Shown here: in pieces, positions 10,480 through 37,893 of the stretch
Layout of the letters: each line of letters starts with the position of its first letter
How positions within the stretch are numbered: the stretch's first letter is position 1
Sequence record: NC_028894.1
Strand: one strand, 5' to 3'
Length of the DNA: 64,000 nucleotides
Origin: Escherichia phage vB_EcoM_VR20
Position numbers and translations under genes: made by a program
Notes under the pieces: generated by a model
What the model saw: the letters and a program-made list of their open reading frames with translations, nothing else
The model's database searches: none
Told to the model about the DNA's origin: nothing

Positions 10480-10812
10480 TTATAGCGTAATCCATTCTCT
10501 GATAGTTTGGGTTACGACACGTTCTTGGAGCTTAACCAGCTCAACAGTCGGGACCATATGGTCCCAGTCAGTATGATAAGAGCCGGTACGAGTTTCGTTT
10601 ACAGCCACATGCACATTATGTTTTTTACTGAAATAAATTGCCTGGCGATATTGGTATTTGCCGGTTTGTGTCCATTCGCCTAATTCAACCGGAACCAGGT
10701 AGTCCGAAAATTCAAACTCGTATGATTCAGTAAACGCATCATGGTCTTCAATGATTTCGCTTAAAACAGCATCAACATCTAATTCATTTTCAATAGTCAT
10801 TGGTCGCTCCAA
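10480..10812 (-). CDS. Hypothetical acidic protein
   Basis: 110 aa ORF. Confidence 0.4.
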   Translation of the reverse strand: MERPMTIENELDVDAVLSEIIEDHDAFTESYEFEFSDYLVPVELGEWTQTGKYQYRQAIYFSKKHNVHVAVNETRTGSYHTDWDHMVPTVELVKLQERVVTQTIREWITL

Positions 10813-11556: not shown

Positions 11557-11814
11557 TTATTCCTTAATTCCTAATACTTGTTTGAAGGTCTCAGTATAAT
11601 CGGAGTATTGACCGGTTTGTTCTTTATGTTTGACCATAATACCATAAACATCTGAACGCATATTATTATATGAACGAGTTAAAGCAGATTTCAATACTGA
11701 ATAACTATCCGGAAGTTTACCGTGTTCTTTATAATAGGCCAGAGTTAATTCACGGACCGCCTTATCAGCAGTCTCAAGATATTCTTTACGCTTTGCCATT
11801 TTCTTCTCGCTCAA
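11557..11814 (-). CDS. Hypothetical protein (nrdC.1-position)
   Basis: 85 aa ORF. Confidence 0.4.
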
Positions 11815-12010
11815 ATCGGTGTTTACAATGTCTGCATTTATATTGAAGCGGAGAGCTACGCCAATAAGTCAATTGGACCTGTTCAGTTCCACATTCAGGG
11901 CAGTTCGGAACGTTTTTAGAAGCGCGTTCACGTCGTTCGACAATTTTAATAATCGCATTCCAATCAGGAATCCCGTATTCTGCAATGTCTTCTCTTAAAC
12001 GTTGTTTCAT
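11786..12010 (-). CDS. Small zinc-ribbon protein
   Basis: 74 aa with CPEC...CRHC two CxxC pairs. Confidence 0.4.
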
Positions 12011-12999
12011 TTCAGCAGCTCCAGAGCCTGCTCCAGTTTATCCAGACGATTGGTTGATTCTTCCCAAAGTCGCTTGACTTTTGTATAGTCTTCCGTTGCC
12101 TTTTTATTAACAGCAAGAGCTTCATTATACGCTGTTTCCAGGGCAACAATTTCAGGCGCTTTTTGTTTCACTGGTTCATTATTCAGATTATCAATCAGGT
12201 CTTCAAGGGTGGTAACTTCTTGCGGTGTATTCATAATTTCCTCATTTTTCTTTTTATAGATTTCTGCAATAGTTGGTTGTTTTGCGCATTTAACTTCGCG
12301 TAATGTCACCGCAATTTTCCAACCTTTCCAACCATGAGCACTGGTGATAGGGTCTACTTTAATTTTTTCAACAGTGCGCATATAATTAAGGGCACACTGT
12401 ACCTGATGAGTAAGAACACATGCAATATCAAGATACTTTTTAACATTTTCTGGGGTAGCTTGTGGAGTAAAGAACTCATACTTAACTGTAATAATTACCT
12501 GGTTTTCACCAGACTCTTTAACATTTATCATGTGCTCAGCCAGATGGGAGATAGTGCGAAAATCACCACCCATCAATTTTGTCGCTGATTTGATGATAGA
12601 CATTTTGTTATCTCTGAATTCACGTGCCCAGCAATTTGCGAATTCAGAAGCAGTATAGCCTTGTTTATCGAGATAGTATTTTTCAACATCACCAAACCAA
12701 TGATATCCAATTGTACCTTTACCGCGTCTGGATTCAACACCAAACTTATTAAGAAGGTCTTTATTAACCAGGTATGCCAGGACTCGGGAACCTTTAAAAG
12801 TTTTCTTGATATCATCGTTACCAGCACGACTCGCAATAGTTGCAATGTCTTTCTTGAAGCGGCCAGATGCAACAATCGTCGAGTCAATCTGATTTAACCA
12901 GAAATTGATAATTGAAAGGATAGCCGATTCACCTATTAATGGTTTTACTTTTGAATCGATAGTGGTGTTAAAGGCCTGGATATATTCATTACGTGTCAT
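12007..12999 (-). CDS. Hypothetical protein with C-terminal coiled coil
   Basis: 330 aa; C-terminal ~60 aa heptad-like KxxE-rich helix ending [12 protein letters not shown]. Confidence 0.5.
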   Translation of the reverse strand: MTRNEYIQAFNTTIDSKVKPLIGESAILSIINFWLNQIDSTIVASGRFKKDIATIASRAGNDDIKKTFKGSRVLAYLVNKDLLNKFGVESRRGKGTIGYHWFGDVEKYYLDKQGYTASEFANCWAREFRDNKMSIIKSATKLMGGDFRTISHLAEHMINVKESGENQVIITVKYEFFTPQATPENVKKYLDIACVLTHQVQCALNYMRTVEKIKVDPITSAHGWKGWKIAVTLREVKCAKQPTIAEIYKKKNEEIMNTPQEVTTLEDLIDNLNNEPVKQKAPEIVALETAYNEALAVNKKATEDYTKVKRLWEESTNRLDKLEQALELLK

Positions 13000-13057
13000 A
13001 GTGTTCTCCTCATAAAGTAGGAATTCATTATACTCCCTCCATCCTTGGAAGTAAACA

Positions 13058-13990
13058 TTATTTTAATGCTTTGATTGCAGCTTGCAATTTATTGCGTTGT
13101 TTTTCCATGTTCTTGATGCGATTCAGAACATCCTGGATACCCTTTTTCTCATCTTCAATCAGACCATTTAAACGGTTGACTGATTCCTGGATAGTATCAG
13201 CATGATAGCTCTCAATAGGCTTCATCGTAGGGTTAGTAACCACTATAGAATTATAAGGTTTAATTTTCCACTGATACTGTTTGGAATCGAATGGACCAGG
13301 CACCGCGGTGGTTTTGAATTTGTCATAGGCTGCATACTGGCCTACGCTGTCACATGATACTGTAGAGGTAGCGATAGAGATACGTTCCATTTCTGGTTCC
13401 TTTTTCTCTTGATAAGGAGCATAAGACAAAAGATATTCTTTAGTTAATTTAATATCAATGGCTATAGTTTTAAGGAATTTTTCCGTTTGGTGGATATAAT
13501 TTGTATCTTCATCAAACGTGTACGATTCAACAGCATGGCGCATATAAAACAGCGCAATACCCATAACCTCTTTAAAGTTATGACAAAGAGCAACATCGCC
13601 CTTGGTGGTTGGTTTGAACTTAATCTGTACACCATCATTCTTGATATTGATAATCAAGTTGTCAGAGTTAAAATTATAGTTCTTGATGTTAACCGGAGCT
13701 TTGCGAATACGAAATCCGCCGGCCAGAATTTCCTTGATACTCTTACGAACCGTGGCACCAAACAAAAACGCTGGGCGGCGGCAGTAATCATTCAGAGAGT
13801 TAATTCTTACAATACGTTGGCCATACCCCTGGGTAGCAGAACCTGATTTGATTTTGCCAAAGTTAACCAAAGAATTCATTGCGATAAGACGAGTCACACG
13901 ACCGTCATGTGGTTCATAACTACTAGCATATTCAGCGCGAGTTTTAATTTTCATATCATAGTCCAAATAATTTTTCATAAAATTTAGCAA
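13058..13990 (-). CDS. Hypothetical protein with C-terminal coiled coil
   Basis: 310 aa; C-terminus ...LIEDEKKGIQDVLNRIKNMEKQRNKLQAAIKALK. Confidence 0.5.
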   Translation of the reverse strand: MLNFMKNYLDYDMKIKTRAEYASSYEPHDGRVTRLIAMNSLVNFGKIKSGSATQGYGQRIVRINSLNDYCRRPAFLFGATVRKSIKEILAGGFRIRKAPVNIKNYNFNSDNLIINIKNDGVQIKFKPTTKGDVALCHNFKEVMGIALFYMRHAVESYTFDEDTNYIHQTEKFLKTIAIDIKLTKEYLLSYAPYQEKKEPEMERISIATSTVSCDSVGQYAAYDKFKTTAVPGPFDSKQYQWKIKPYNSIVVTNPTMKPIESYHADTIQESVNRLNGLIEDEKKGIQDVLNRIKNMEKQRNKLQAAIKALK

Positions 13991-14171
13991 TAGGCCAAAA
14001 CACCATCATAATTGCCCAAACAAACCAAAGCAGAGGCCATACTAGTGTAATGAATACTGCGTCATAGCTTGATTCAATTTCGATTGGATTCCAATCACCC
14101 GATTTATGAATGATAATGGTCGTTATGAATCCTAGCACAAAGTAAAGGAGAATAAAACCTACTATTTCCAT
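13956..14171 (-). CDS. Small membrane protein
   Basis: 71 aa, two hydrophobic segments. Confidence 0.4.
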   Translation of the reverse strand: MEIVGFILLYFVLGFITTIIIHKSGDWNPIEIESSYDAVFITLVWPLLWFVWAIMMVFWPIAKFYEKLFGL

Positions 14172-14257
14172 ATTAACCTACACGATATTTGAGAATATAA
14201 GCCACAGAATACCTGTGGCGACAATTACATAACCAAGAACAGCAAGCCATTCCATCA

Positions 14258-15106
14258 TTAATCCTTAAGCAATTCAATAACGTTCATCAGTTTTTGACGT
14301 TCAGCTTTTGCTGCACTGTTCAGTCCTGACAGGCGGAAAATTTCATCATCTTGTTGCTGGATGGTGATGTTAAGTTCTTCAATCTGTTTAGTGAAAAGCT
14401 CAATTTGCTCTGAATATTTTTCATTGCTTCGCACTGGAACAGGTTCCATTTTAGGAGCTTGCTCTGAAGGACTATCAACTACAACTCGGTCTTTAATTTG
14501 ACATAATTTAATACGCTGGACGCCTCCAGTTTTAACATCATAAAATACAAGAATTCCATGGGTCTCTAGTTCAGACAAAGCCAAACGGAGGTGGAATTTC
14601 CAGTTTTCGTATTGACATCCGCTAAAAGAAGAAATACTGTATTCGCCTTCATTTTGACCTTTAATAACATTAAATAGTTTGTAATCTAAAGAATTATTGG
14701 TTTTAAAGGTCATTTGTTTATCTTGACCGCTTGCCAGACGAGCACCAAGAGCTAATAAACGTCGTTGGTTAGTATGAAGGTCTTTGACCACTTCATCAAA
14801 TGTCATGGTGCTAATCGCACGACCATAAAGGTCATAACCTTTATTATAATTTTTAAGTAAAATTTTGGCATTAGCACGAGACAACATACCCGAACGTTGA
14901 AGAGATTTCATGACTCGGTCTTCTAATGTAAGCAAGCCCGTTGTTTTATTAAAGATTTTAGTGAATTCAGCAGAATTAGTACAAACATTGAACTTATTCC
15001 ACATCATATATAAAACATTTAAAACCACATCTTTAGTGCTCGGAATACTGTTAAATTTAACAACTTTTTTAACTTCAGAACGAATTTCATTAATTGCTTG
15101 TGACAT
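14258..15106 (-). CDS. Hypothetical protein with C-terminal coiled coil
   Basis: 282 aa; C-terminus ...EQIELFTKQIEELNITIQQQDDEIFRL...RQKLMNVIELLKD. Confidence 0.5.
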   Translation of the reverse strand: MSQAINEIRSEVKKVVKFNSIPSTKDVVLNVLYMMWNKFNVCTNSAEFTKIFNKTTGLLTLEDRVMKSLQRSGMLSRANAKILLKNYNKGYDLYGRAISTMTFDEVVKDLHTNQRRLLALGARLASGQDKQMTFKTNNSLDYKLFNVIKGQNEGEYSISSFSGCQYENWKFHLRLALSELETHGILVFYDVKTGGVQRIKLCQIKDRVVVDSPSEQAPKMEPVPVRSNEKYSEQIELFTKQIEELNITIQQQDDEIFRLSGLNSAAKAERQKLMNVIELLKD

Positions 15107-15169
15107 ATTATTTTCCTCAATAGATTAATCAAAGGTCAGAACCATTATACCATCCTTGGTATAAAGCGT

Positions 15170-15694
15170 TTATGCGAGAACCGTCTTTAAACGCTCTTCA
15201 AACTTCTGAAGGAGTACATGGCGCTCTGCTCTTTGTTTGATATAGGTTTCAATACGCTCTGAAGTGAGATTGTATTGTTCATTAACTGATTCCCTCATGA
15301 ATTCAGGAATCTCTTTACATGCTTTGATTTCATTGAACTTATCAAGCACCGCTTGTTGTTCAGCAATCAGACCATCATAATATTGGATATCTGATTTGAT
15401 GTTTTGTACATCAGATTCAGTAGGCATATTTTTCTTTGCTCTTGCCGCTTGATATTCTGCATTAGTCTCTCTTGACCAGAACAAAGAGCGGTTTTTGTTG
15501 GTGTTTTTATATACATCAACAATACCAACTGAATCAACAGTCACAATCCAGTTCCAGGCGTTTTTATAAGTTTGACCACCTGATACTGTAATCTCACCCG
15601 CACAAGCAACATCATTAAAGAACTTGCTTTGCGCTTCTGATTTAAAATTACCATTATTGTAATTAATCAGATTAAAGATTGATTTAGCTTCCAT
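15170..15694 (-). CDS. Hypothetical protein
   Basis: 174 aa ORF preceded by class II leader cassette. Confidence 0.45.
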   Translation of the reverse strand: MEAKSIFNLINYNNGNFKSEAQSKFFNDVACAGEITVSGGQTYKNAWNWIVTVDSVGIVDVYKNTNKNRSLFWSRETNAEYQAARAKKNMPTESDVQNIKSDIQYYDGLIAEQQAVLDKFNEIKACKEIPEFMRESVNEQYNLTSERIETYIKQRAERHVLLQKFEERLKTVLA

Positions 15695-16391: not shown

Positions 16392-17402
16392 TTAACGATA
16401 ATAGGAATTGTGGTTGTCAAGATATACCTCTTCAACAAACTTGTCCCAGAACTTCATGTCTACCTTATCAGGCATACCATTCTTAGCGGCCCAGATGGCA
16501 TTAGTTTCGACTTCATCAATGATAGCTTCAAGTTCGGCCTGTACATCTTTAAAAGCATGAAGCCCTTGTTTGATTTCAAGGATAAATGGTGCTGTACGTA
16601 AAGGATATTGGAGGTCACCAGTTTGATAGATTTCCTTCAACTGGTATCCAGCACGATAAGCATGGCTCAGAGCTTTCCAGTCAATACCTTCATTGGCTTC
16701 TGCCTTACGAGCACGTTCACCATATTCGGCATCGAGTTTATTCAGAGATTGCTTGAGCTCGATTAAAGACAAGGTGGTTTGGTACTTACGTCCAAGAACA
16801 GTATAGAACGTTTGAGGGCCTGTTTTCTCGTGGTTATGGAATACCCATTCACAGAACTCATTTTCAGGGAGTCGATGTTTGATATCTTCTACCTTAGTGC
16901 GACGTTGCTTAGTCGAACCATCTTCTTGATAGTCGACCCACTGTTCAGGAATCTGGTTAACGATTGCCAGTACACCACGTAGAGCGGCCAATCGAGAACC
17001 TTTAACACCATACTTAGAAGCTTGCTTGCGGACATAACCCAAATAGGCTTTCATGTTAGTTGTATAGAACCGTGAACGGTTATCCTGGATAAACTTCCAT
17101 ACATCTGGTAAATCGGATTTGACAACCAGGTCAGCCGGGGTGTGAATCATATCCAGGGCAACGGTTTCGCCTTCGGCCGCCAGTTTAAAGAAATATTTCA
17201 GACTATAAAGTTCATGGTCAACATCATCTTTTGTATTTTTGGTAGCCGTGTTATTCGTGTTCAGGTTGGTATGGTTCATCGCCGTCCCAAGTAGAATATC
17301 ACGAGGATGTGGAACAAAGATTTCTTTAAAATCGACATCAGATTCTGGGGTACTTGTTCCATAAAGGTGGCTACCGAAGTAGCCTTTCATAACTGTTCTC
17401 AT
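16392..17402 (-). CDS. Predicted nucleotidyltransferase-fold protein (Pol-beta superfamily-like)
   Basis: 336 aa; N-terminal GSHLYGTSTPESDVDFK fits G[SG]x9-13[DE]h[DE]h signature; start at internal Met with GAGGA SD; ATGA overlap with upstream membrane ORF. Confidence 0.5.
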   Translation of the reverse strand: MRTVMKGYFGSHLYGTSTPESDVDFKEIFVPHPRDILLGTAMNHTNLNTNNTATKNTKDDVDHELYSLKYFFKLAAEGETVALDMIHTPADLVVKSDLPDVWKFIQDNRSRFYTTNMKAYLGYVRKQASKYGVKGSRLAALRGVLAIVNQIPEQWVDYQEDGSTKQRRTKVEDIKHRLPENEFCEWVFHNHEKTGPQTFYTVLGRKYQTTLSLIELKQSLNKLDAEYGERARKAEANEGIDWKALSHAYRAGYQLKEIYQTGDLQYPLRTAPFILEIKQGLHAFKDVQAELEAIIDEVETNAIWAAKNGMPDKVDMKFWDKFVEEVYLDNHNSYYR

Positions 17403-17851
17403 TTTTTGTCCTCGAAGTGGATTACAGGACACATCTTAGATTTACGAGCTTTAATGTATTGAATAACGATGTTTTCTTTAGTTTCCTTTCCTTCACGTTT
17501 GGCTAGAATACGTTGCCATTCCTTTTCTTCTTTATGTAAATCATACCAGGACCATAAATTCATTAGACCATACATTAAACCAAATGCTACCGCCAGAATA
17601 AGAGCCAGTGTAGCTAGTCCTAAAATAAACCCTAAGCCTAAACCGACCGGGGTACTTAATACAAAGAAATGCTCTAATACACCGGCCCCCGCGACAGTTA
17701 ATCCAAAAACCATACTACCGATAAAAATGGCACAAACAAAACAAGCCCAAACCATTTTCCAAAAGTAAGCACACAATGAGTGTGGACGAGAATGGCGGTC
17801 ATAAAAACGGTCATGGAAGCGAGCGTGCCAAGAGTTTGCATTGATAATCAT
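17399..17851 (-). CDS. Integral membrane protein
   Basis: 150 aa; hydrophobic segments FVCAIFIGSMVFGLTVAGAGVL and LGLGFILGLATLALILAVAFGLMYGL. Confidence 0.5.
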   Translation of the reverse strand: MIINANSWHARFHDRFYDRHSRPHSLCAYFWKMVWACFVCAIFIGSMVFGLTVAGAGVLEHFFVLSTPVGLGLGFILGLATLALILAVAFGLMYGLMNLWSWYDLHKEEKEWQRILAKREGKETKENIVIQYIKARKSKMCPVIHFEDKK

Positions 17852-36367: not shown

Positions 36368-36922
36368 TTAGTTCTTATAAAAGCGGAACGGATTTATATG
36401 AAAGGCGAGCATAGCCTTAGGGATGGGTCGGGACAGAAGGCTCTTGAGCTTCCAGCCACAATAAACACGCAGATAAAAGGTGATTCCACCGACCTTAAGA
36501 TAAGGAACAGAAGCAAAAACACCCCAGGCGTTGTCCGTCCACATCCAGAGCCATCCATGATGAGCTTTATCCGGGGAACCAGATTCGACATCAGGATTAC
36601 CTTTATAATGGAATTCTGAATTGCAATCACGACCGAGCTTGTGGTAAGCAAAATTGTATGCTTTGTTTCGCCAGAGCCAGGCTACTCGTTGGAAGTAAAC
36701 ACCTAACGGCCATTTTCTGATTTTTTCCCAGCGTTTAACATGACCACGGTCACCATCAATTGGATTATCGTATGTCATCATCCAGTCAAATCCGAACGGA
36801 AGCTTACCAGTCTTTTTGTTATGGAACGGCACTACAAATGGTGCAAGGATAACAGCCAGAATCATTGAAATGAAATCCAGTGGCACTAACAGAATCCAGC
36901 TTAGATATTTTAAAAGTTTCAT
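36368..36922 (-). CDS. Membrane-anchored protein, apparently late-expressed
   Basis: 184 aa; N-terminal TM LSWILLVPLDFISMILAVILAPFVV then Trp-rich soluble domain; TATAAATA ~27 nt upstream. Confidence 0.5.
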   Translation of the reverse strand: MKLLKYLSWILLVPLDFISMILAVILAPFVVPFHNKKTGKLPFGFDWMMTYDNPIDGDRGHVKRWEKIRKWPLGVYFQRVAWLWRNKAYNFAYHKLGRDCNSEFHYKGNPDVESGSPDKAHHGWLWMWTDNAWGVFASVPYLKVGGITFYLRVYCGWKLKSLLSRPIPKAMLAFHINPFRFYKN

Positions 36923-36948
36923 AAATTTCCTTAGTTATGGGTACGTTA

Positions 36949-36956
36949 TATTTATA
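36949..36956 (-). promoter_or_regulatory. T4-type late promoter TATAAATA
   Basis: Exact TATAAATA on minus strand upstream of 36368..36922. Confidence 0.5.
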
Positions 36957-36984
36957 AAAAAGCCCCAACCTTTCGGAAGGGGCT
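36954..36984 (-). terminator. Terminator-like hairpin
   Basis: AGCCCC..GGGGCT imperfect hairpin followed on minus strand by TTTTTAT; downstream of 37033..37416. Confidence 0.4.
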
Positions 36985-37032
36985 AAGCCTTGCGGCAACC
37001 TTGTCGGGGTTCCACCTGCTAGGCAAGTGTTC

Positions 37033-37416
37033 TTATCCGCGTGCGAATGCCATTGCAGCGCGTTCGTTGGCACGGTCAGTGATGTTCAAGAATTTATCAC
37101 GAGCGATTTCGATTGGAGCACCAACCCAGTCAGCAGCACCATTACCTGGGGACTGTTTAGGACGAACCATATAAGTTGAAACTTTGGAACCAGCTAGTTT
37201 AGCACCAGGTGCAGCGGCATTCTTAACGTCTTTAGCTTTGATACCAAAACCAGTTACGATGCCCCAAGAAACACCATTAACTGGTTTCTTGAACATAACA
37301 CGGTCGCCAATTGAAACACCCGCTTTTTCTGGAGCTACTAAAGAAAATTTACCGGCTTCAGTCAGCACGGATTCGGTGATGGTATTGCGATTTAAAAATT
37401 CTGCATATGTAAGCAT
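37033..37416 (-). CDS. Hypothetical protein with CTS-like N-terminus
   Basis: 127 aa; MLTYAEFLNRNTITE resembles capsid targeting sequences. Confidence 0.45.
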   Translation of the reverse strand: MLTYAEFLNRNTITESVLTEAGKFSLVAPEKAGVSIGDRVMFKKPVNGVSWGIVTGFGIKAKDVKNAAAPGAKLAGSKVSTYMVRPKQSPGNGAADWVGAPIEIARDKFLNITDRANERAAMAFARG

Positions 37417-37653
37417 TTTGTTTTTCCATTATTAGGGTTGTTGTTAATATTTATATTCCATAGTACCGGATGCACCATCCGCTCGGATTTCTCATACTAC
37501 CGGGCGCACCGCCCGCTCTGGAAAAACTCCATAAAAAGGTGCGCCGTTTCTGCTGTGATATAAGGGGACATCAACAAATCGTAAAGATTTATTAATGTCA
37601 GTCCTTAAACAGGGAACATCAGTCCGACGACTTACCGGTAGCGACCCGGTTTC
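37417..37653 (-). other. GC-rich structured intergenic segment (candidate small stable RNA)
   Basis: Hairpins CGGGCGgtgCGCCCG, CGGATGgtgCATCCG, ACCGGgtcgctaCCGGT within 240 bp lacking an ORF, adjacent to the tRNA genes. Confidence 0.3.
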
Positions 37654-37893
37654 TCATTCAATTGTAATAGCTAATTTGACTTTAACAACCTTATAATTGG
37701 AATCAAGGTCATTGAATTCCATAAAATTTGTTGCTAATCTGCGAGTCGGGAAACTTAGATATTTATTATGAGCCGGAGGAGCGGTTAATGCAAACCATGG
37801 GACTTGTTTATCATTTGCATCGAACTCGTCAAAACTATAAACCAGCTCGTTGTTGGTTATATCCATAACCGCATAGGATTCGTTAATAACCAT
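37654..37893 (-). CDS. Hypothetical protein
   Basis: 79 aa ORF downstream of tRNA-Arg. Confidence 0.4.
   Translation of the reverse strand: MVINESYAVMDITNNELVYSFDEFDANDKQVPWFALTAPPAHNKYLSFPTRRLATNFMEFNDLDSNYKVVKVKLAITIE

Follow-up and report, generated by a model that had tools for sequence, protein, structure and literature searches.

Homologues of T4 NrdC.4, NrdC.5 and NrdC.6 in Escherichia phage vB_EcoM_VR20: strongly diverged tandem paralogues with a conserved coiled-coil tail and a candidate role in counter-defence

The DNA considered here, referred to as the window, comprises 64,000 nucleotides of Escherichia phage vB_EcoM_VR20 (NC_028894.1), and the element of interest is a run of three consecutive open reading frames (ORFs) at 12007-12999, 13058-13990 and 14258-15106, which were confirmed, all on the minus strand, where an initial annotation made from the letters alone had placed them. 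By sequence, these ORFs are homologues of nrdC.4, nrdC.5 and nrdC.6 of phage T4, already known as early, non-essential accessory genes of T-even phages. In a database comparison, the region at 11.5-16.5 kb showed 94-96% DNA identity to the T4-like coliphages VR25, VR7 and TH40, a resemblance on which the source phage is classed as a T4-like coliphage of the VR7/VR25 type (Straboviridae, Tevenvirinae, Gaprivervirus). The VR7 counterparts of the three ORFs are annotated as nrdC.4, nrdC.5 and nrdC.6, and belong there to a leftward early cluster which runs from gene 49 through nrdC towards mobD. The genes and their predicted tails are the following.

12007..12999, minus strand: nrdC.4 homologue, 330 residues; helical N-terminal subdomain and alpha/beta subdomain (residues 1-243), linker (244-281) and tail (282-330)
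12010..12156, minus strand: C-terminal coiled-coil tail of NrdC.4, residues 282-330; helix 282-329 in the model, with an unbroken heptad register
13058..13954, minus strand: nrdC.5 homologue, 298 residues; body (1-178), disordered, indel-rich linker (179-246) and tail helix (247-298)
13061..13216, minus strand: C-terminal coiled-coil tail of NrdC.5, residues 247-298, ending KQRNKLQAAIKALK; helix 247-297 in the AlphaFold2 model
14258..15106, minus strand: nrdC.6 homologue, 282 residues; body (about 1-205), linker (about 206-226) and tail (about 227-282)
14261..14422, minus strand: C-terminal coiled-coil tail of NrdC.6, about residues 229-282, ending AERQKLMNVIELLKD; the top heptad window starts at residue 229

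The first of these proteins matched the PHROG profile phrog_1435 over positions 1-334 of 334 (expect value, E, of 5e-143), and PF26897 is carried by 46 of its 46 homologues. It is 47% identical, over 270 aligned residues, to the C-terminal 272-residue ORF of T4 NrdC.4, the T4 reference for this comparison being strain 147, where nrdC.4 is frameshifted. In that strain (KJ477685.1; 5362-6415 of the piece examined) the frameshift splits the gene into overlapping ORFs of 95 and 272 residues, and the record leaves nrdC.3, nrdC.4 and nrdC.6-nrdC.8 unannotated. The second ORF, read from 13990, scored 417.1 bits against the Pfam family DUF7235 (PF23882; cut-off 30), its residues 5-310 covering the whole profile (positions 1-307 of 307). 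Its product can be aligned from end to end with T4 NrdC.5 (27% identity, 300 residues, E 5e-27), tblastn against T4-type genomes gave an E of ~1e-18, and the gene is placed between nrdC.6 and nrdC.4, the same order as in T4. The two NrdC.5 proteins have in common the layout of head, linker and tail, one motif where the tail begins (KP[IV]E.[WY]HAD) and another where it ends (KL..A[IL]..L[KN]), and differ in that the protein of the window is 42 residues shorter and has another linker. The third ORF matched phrog_2257 over the full profile (E 1e-123), and its homologues, NrdC.6 of VR7 and of JS10 among them, carry PF26899; the identity is 52% to T4 NrdC.6 and 71% to JS10 NrdC.6. As for NrdC.5, the architecture and the terminal motif of NrdC.4 and NrdC.6 are those of their T4 orthologues.

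The start of the middle gene had to be amended. It is most likely the ATG at 13954, giving 298 residues, and not the TTG at 13990, since this ATG follows the stop of an upstream 71-residue ORF by one base (TGAtATG) and a database protein 100% identical to the predicted product has 298 residues. The stop of nrdC.4 overlaps the start of nrdC.2 as ATGA (12007-12010), which suggests translational coupling.

A different identity is given by many GenBank records, where homologues of these proteins bear the product name 'thioredoxin' or 'thioredoxin, phage-associated'. Apart from the name, however, no thioredoxin or glutaredoxin match was obtained in Pfam for any of the three proteins at E up to 1, no CxxC active site is visible, and the predicted fold and the size are unlike those of the 87-residue NrdC, so that practically no credence can be given to a thioredoxin function. 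The label is evidently an artefact spread from the locus names nrdC.N, which mean only an ORF downstream of nrdC. Most nrdC.N ORFs of T-even phages are labelled 'thioredoxin' in GenBank, where the name 'replication protein' is also given to one NrdC.4 homologue and 'oleosin' to another neighbour; all these names appear to be propagated misannotations.

The initial annotation had described each protein as ending in a charged, heptad-like helix of 40-60 residues, and such tails were confirmed, a single unbroken heptad helix of about 47-50 residues closing each of the three proteins. In all of them, the 28-residue window with the strongest heptad contrast is part of the tail, hydrophobic residues occupying 88% of the a/d positions and 10% of the others, and the last 49 residues keep a single register, with no stutter, in each of them. 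When the tails were shuffled with their composition preserved (5000 trials per protein), the observed contrast was equalled or exceeded in 4 trials for NrdC.4, in none for NrdC.5 and in 46 for NrdC.6; shuffled sequences rarely reach it, and the tails are therefore not a case of biased composition devoid of heptad periodicity, the objection which had been foreseen. With a canonical coiled coil defined by at least four uninterrupted heptads, hydrophobic a/d positions, no helix breakers and a predicted helix, the tails qualified with about 6.5-7 heptads, strongly hydrophobic residues being found at 71-79% of the a/d positions and at 9-20% of the rest. In the AlphaFold2 models of NrdC.4 (predicted local distance difference test, pLDDT, 81.6) and NrdC.5, the tail is a lone helix of 48-51 residues which follows a low-confidence linker (residues 282-329 in NrdC.4; residues 247-297, with pLDDT 82-91, in NrdC.5). 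Moreover, the conservation of the tails shows the pattern of a coiled-coil interface, as expected, since in all three families column entropy increases from a/d to e/g and to b/c/f positions (0.37, 0.47 and 0.79 bits in NrdC.4; 0.65, 0.75 and 1.05 bits in NrdC.5; 0.44, 0.57 and 0.88 bits in NrdC.6).

The likeness among the tails goes beyond composition, as had been noticed at the outset. When numbered backwards from the final Lys, the core positions coincide (2, 5, 9, 12 and so on up to 47) in NrdC.4, NrdC.5, NrdC.6 and T4 NrdC.3, the product of a fourth gene of this kind, and the helices therefore have equal length and phase; by simple arithmetic, the chance of a common phase alone would be ~(1/7)^2 for three proteins. 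All three tails of the window end in L-x-x-[AV]-[IL]-x-x-L-K, and a terminal motif K-L-x-x-A-[IL]-x-x-L-K is shared across the paralogues. Of 29 offsets compared, the ungapped alignment anchored at the C-terminus came out first in each of the 10 pairs tested, outscoring also the in-register shifts of 7, 14, 21 and 28 residues, and its z-scores against shuffles were 2.3-4.0 for every cross-family pair, with 6.1 for the NrdC.5 orthologues of the window and T4. The pattern L-x-x-[AV]-[ILV]-x-[ALVI]-[LI]-[KN] matched 6 of the 546 ORFs which the window and the T4 locus contain together, all of them NrdC.3, NrdC.4, NrdC.5 or NrdC.6, a test which shows specificity only, given that the pattern was built from these same sequences. 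NrdC.8, whose C-terminus is also helical, was considered as a further member and rejected, its anchored scores being at background (z of -0.9 to 0.4); lacking the shared motif, it served as an internal control. On sequence grounds, then, the likeness is one of a short terminal motif with equal length and phase, and not one of strong sequence identity.

The bodies attached to these tails had been taken as unrelated, and here the initial annotation does not hold. The possibility that nothing but a generic coiled-coil composition, reached by chance or convergence and with no common origin or type of function, makes the tails alike could appeal to several null results: BLASTP between the three window proteins gave nothing significant in any pair, the first hhalign runs, with shallow alignments, gave probabilities of 1-9%, and hidden Markov models (HMMs) of the tails found no significant match across families. 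The comparison became informative only when T4-type NrdC.5 representatives and NrdC.3 were added. T4 NrdC.3 matched the NrdC.4 of the window by BLASTP (E 3e-6), and NrdC.3 and NrdC.4 are clear homologues by hhalign (97.9%, E 3.8e-13). The combined NrdC.3 and NrdC.4 profile aligned with the NrdC.5 family at 94% (E 1.4e-7, 236 columns) and, with the tails cut off, still at 91% (E 1.1e-6, 158 columns), helix falling on helix and hairpin on hairpin, which is the outcome of the profile search of the N-terminal domains that had been proposed as a check. As regards NrdC.6, the NrdC.4 model gave, in Foldseek, a full-length match to the structure predicted for JS10 NrdC.6 (E 9.6e-6, 334 columns), and body-only hhalign between NrdC.4 and NrdC.6 gave E 0.002 over 197 columns. 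Together with these matches, the equal phase and length of the tails, the anchored alignment, the adjacency of the genes on one strand with the same domain order, and the NrdC.8 tail next to them, which has no such motif, speak against chance or convergence, a very unlikely explanation that is largely refuted.

NrdC.4, NrdC.5 and NrdC.6 are therefore old, strongly diverged tandem paralogues with one architecture, T4 nrdC.3 included, since tailless bodies still align and a structural match links NrdC.4 to NrdC.6; descent from a single ancestor is the best explanation of the common tail, which has been kept constant while the heads, which are at most about 25% identical across paralogues, diverged, and the addition of a docking module to unrelated proteins is not required. 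From the profile comparisons, we propose a single superfamily of NrdC.3, NrdC.4, NrdC.5 and NrdC.6 whose heads are homologous in their own right, with weaker support for NrdC.6. A profile search of 1.84 billion cluster representatives, from which the distant NrdC.5 members added above were taken, recovered the NrdC.5 family in no more than 8 clusters of that set, with no link to any other family, and a search of BFVD with the NrdC.5 model returned its own orthologues only. Sequence searches of the PDB gave no relatives, only noise (designed helical repeats and an Smc coiled coil), and through them no solved structure was found for any member of NrdC.3-6. The fold search with NrdC.4 reached proteins of 280-374 residues in T4-like phages of Acinetobacter, Klebsiella, Pectobacterium, Erwinia and Serratia. 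One of these, Acj9p122 of Acinetobacter phage Acj9 (325 residues; 36836-37813 of the piece examined), has its gene immediately after gene 49, carries a long heptad helix at its C-terminus and matched NrdC.4 in Foldseek (E 2e-6; E5EPQ6), with no HMM-detectable sequence similarity. To judge from these predicted folds, the combination of head and coiled-coil tail may be ancestral in Straboviridae.

Within each family, the three parts have evolved differently, the tail being the most conserved, indel-free segment and the linker the most indel-rich part, with a gap in 59-92% of its columns. Mean pairwise identity is 0.75 in the tail and 0.54 in the body for NrdC.4, 0.77 and 0.68 for NrdC.5, and 0.72 and 0.64 for NrdC.6, no indels occurring in the tails of the last two families. 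This conservation acts on the protein, since identical residues often use different codons (37-62% in tails, 31-52% in bodies); constraint at the DNA level and recent recombination were rejected as its origin, synonymous differences being as frequent in tails as in bodies. The three proteins are also distant from T4 (47% identity for NrdC.4, 27% for NrdC.5 and 52% for NrdC.6) in comparison with 49.2, 49.3, nrdC, nrdC.1, nrdC.2, nrdC.8 and nrdC.11, which are 67-84% identical; for nrdC.9, the figure is 37.5% in a partial alignment of 56 residues. Furthermore, the number of paralogues varies from four in T4 and three in the lineage of the window to NrdC.3 and one fusion in Salmonella phage Manna. 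Low identity to T4 combined with variable copy number is an arms-race signature. The fusion protein, Manna_094 (PP987310.1; 4206-5243 of the piece examined), is a natural in-frame NrdC.6::NrdC.4 product: its residues 1-262 correspond to NrdC.6 (88% identity to T4) as far as the midpoint of the tail helix (...QQYDDEI), and its residues 263-345 to the final 83 residues of a T4-type NrdC.4, with 96% identity. The junction lies at a shared 'DEI', and this phage lacks nrdC.5 and the NrdC.4 head.

What the tail does can be approached from the same data. Coiled-coil-like tails with interface-type conservation make oligomerisation, which had been suggested from the outset, a reasonable inference; the premise from which it had been drawn, one tail shared by otherwise unrelated bodies, does not stand. 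A different use of the tail, and the main alternative, would be as a helix by which all paralogues dock to the same partner (a host factor or another early protein of the phage) and not to themselves, so that the heads would be delivered to, or regulated at, a single site; in a variant of this explanation, the paralogues would form a hetero-oligomeric hub among themselves. Equal tail length, identical heptad phase and the common terminal motif, maintained despite such dissimilar heads, would suit docking, as would the many non-core positions that are invariant within a family (e.g. IQDVL.RIKNME in NrdC.5), the non-canonical core residues (W, Y, N, S, R and E), which fit a heterotypic interface, and the Manna fusion, which retains an intact NrdC.4 tail at its C-terminus. 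Nevertheless, each of the three families has its own set of conserved non-core positions, an argument against a single, identical binding surface, and the tail profiles do not match one another significantly. In addition, the number of paralogues is four, three or two, with a single detected fold relative in Acj9, and an obligate hetero-complex is unlikely because phages differ in this respect. Docking to a common partner is consequently regarded as unlikely, albeit with a real minority chance, and self-association or association among paralogues as the function which the tail would rather have.

The genomic setting of the three genes provides the second element of the interpretation. The other features of the region are listed below.

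10480..10800, minus strand: gene 49.2 homologue, 75% identical to T4 gp49.2
11557..11799, minus strand: nrdC.1 homologue, 77.5% identical to T4 NrdC.1
13027..13055, minus strand: promoter-like site of the sigma-70/T4 early type, TTTACT-17-TATAAT, followed by an AGGAG ribosome-binding site, in the gap between nrdC.5 and nrdC.4
13956..14171, minus strand: predicted membrane protein of 71 residues, not a paralogue, between nrdC.6 and nrdC.5 (phrog_7899, E 3e-32)
15170..15694, minus strand: nrdC.8 homologue, 174 residues (phrog_2274), 67% identical to T4 NrdC.8
16392..17432, minus strand: nrdC.11 homologue, 84% identical to T4, containing a nucleotidyltransferase domain of the RlaP/DNA polymerase beta-like type (PF10127, E 3e-11; phrog_388)

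Several homologues of these genes have been assigned to counter-defence. T4 nrdC.5 supplied in trans restores the plating of a deletion mutant on cells with the SIR2-type dsr1 of ECOR17 (Srikant, Guegler & Laub, eLife 2022; PMC9391042), antagonism of Dsr1 being the sole function known in the DUF7235 family, T6 Gp49.2 inhibits OLD (PMC13096335), and T4 NrdC.1 inhibits Septu (bioRxiv 10.1101/2025.11.20.689424). Bas37_0203, in turn, inhibits Druantia III; in a supplementary gene table, its position and its length (528 nt) equal those of T4 nrdC.8, so that by gene order and length it would be the nrdC.8 counterpart, and the ORF at 15170-15694 is for this reason probably an anti-Druantia factor. 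Since homologues of 49.2, nrdC.1, nrdC.5 and nrdC.8 lie together, and nrdC.3 to nrdC.8 are non-essential in T4 according to a supplementary table, the region from 49 to mobD can be described as an early, dispensable and dense counter-defence island. Gp49.2, NrdC.1 and Bas37_0203 resemble the proteins considered here in coming from the same early, dispensable and variable region, with one small protein for each defence system, and differ from NrdC.3-6 in being small (80-175 residues) and unrelated to them in sequence. The nrdC.11 homologue is another conserved gene of this island.

As for the organization of the locus, the lineage of the window differs from T4 in the absence of nrdC.3 and in the extra 71-residue membrane ORF, whose counterpart in phage EAWsc9 is annotated as 'TMhelix containing protein'. 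T4 has no gene at this site and has, on the other side of nrdC.6, a membrane protein of 133 residues, NrdC.7. NrdC.2 has 74 residues in the window and 104 in T4, and a terminator-like hairpin (14201-14219) lies upstream of the membrane ORF. The promoter-like site at 13027..13055 is a consensus match only, obtained by a consensus scan and by reading the sequence. The 10-mer CCAAGGATGG occurs in just two exact copies in the window (13039-13048 and 15150-15159, both on the minus strand), one in the short intergenic region directly ahead of nrdC.4 and the other in that ahead of nrdC.6; (G/C)TTTA(C/T) stands before both copies and TATAAT after them, at differing spacings. The two copies may have been left behind by a regulatory region that was duplicated, or may be a promoter element common to both genes, and the one upstream of nrdC.6 resembles a T4 middle promoter with a MotA box (GCTTTA, 12 nt, TATAAT).

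Taking both elements together, we consider with moderate confidence that NrdC.4, NrdC.5 and NrdC.6 are tandem diverged paralogues of a counter-defence island whose heads neutralise immune proteins and whose coiled-coil tails oligomerise. According to this proposal, the proteins would share an architecture of globular head, flexible, indel-rich linker and conserved C-terminal helix, the head being made up of a helical subdomain and a beta-hairpin/helix/beta-hairpin unit. Each fast-diverging head would bind and neutralise a different host immune protein, that of NrdC.5 acting, to go by the T4 protein, against the SIR2-type Dsr1, while the flexible linker would give the head its reach. The tail would oligomerise the protein, with itself or among paralogues, thus raising its avidity for defence proteins that are oligomers themselves. 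The protein of the window may keep Dsr1 as its target, if homology to T4 NrdC.5 is a guide, and NrdC.4 and NrdC.6 would be anti-defence proteins directed against other systems. A comparable case is DSAD1 of phage SPbeta, which inhibits DSR2, a SIR2-domain NADase defence protein, by direct binding, a mechanism established structurally; by analogy, direct binding is the kind of mechanism which could be envisaged for the NrdC.5 head.

A number of observations count against this proposal. Regarding function, no published function exists for NrdC.4 and NrdC.6 (nor for NrdC.3), and in the fitness rows available, one T4 and one Bas37 comparison whose conditions are not identified, the fitness change of NrdC.4 and NrdC.6 insertion mutants was not significant (q 0.8-1.0); the NrdC.5 of the window, moreover, is only 27% identical to the protein assayed, so its target may differ. 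Regarding common origin, the link of NrdC.6, the weakest among the three proteins, consists of one Foldseek hit with a template modelling (TM) score of 0.36-0.42 and weak profile scores, while the tails, taken alone, gave no significant cross-family match, either as HMMs searched through every ORF of the window and of the T4 locus (E ~0.3-3) or by hhalign between families (E 0.005-0.12). As to structure, the NrdC.5 model has a mean pLDDT of 56 and is poor beyond its beta-beta-alpha-beta-beta unit and the tail, and the models are those of monomers, so that oligomerisation, with whatever stoichiometry, is a presumption. Finally, hydrophobic residues occupy several e/g positions of the tails, and the core includes Trp, Tyr, Asn and Ser; because of this, a partner other than the protein itself is possible.

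Two further readings of the same architecture were weighed. Should the proteins belong to the virion, an alpha/beta head like that of a tail terminator or tail completion protein, joined to a fibrous coiled coil, would serve structure or assembly and not immune evasion. Such an assignment is highly improbable: a significant structural match to tail terminator or tail completion proteins (gpU-like, DUF3168), a position in the late structural module and essentiality were all looked for, and none was found. The other reading extends the proposed counter-defence role, regarding NrdC.3-6 as a birth-and-death family found throughout Straboviridae in which a conserved coiled-coil chassis carries interchangeable, fast-evolving heads, each directed at a different defence system of the host, and possibly forms mixed hetero-oligomers, thereby working as a programmable, multivalent anti-defence hub; the tail-terminator-like alpha/beta domain of the head could, in addition, make it a decoy for sensors of phage structural proteins. 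In this extended form the idea is speculative and distinctly doubtful.

In the literature searched, no description was found of a paralogy of NrdC.3-6 or of a shared tail, and the common origin together with the conserved coiled-coil tail thus represents a modest new observation on genes which are themselves known. It corrects a widespread misannotation as thioredoxins, and to phage biology as a whole it adds an increment and no surprise, the shared origin and chassis being the useful insight. In this context, NrdC.3, NrdC.4 and NrdC.6 belong to an anti-defence island which ranks among the most productive in T-even phages and, if they are indeed paralogues of the anti-Dsr1 protein NrdC.5, they would be immediate candidate inhibitors of other E. 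coli defence systems.

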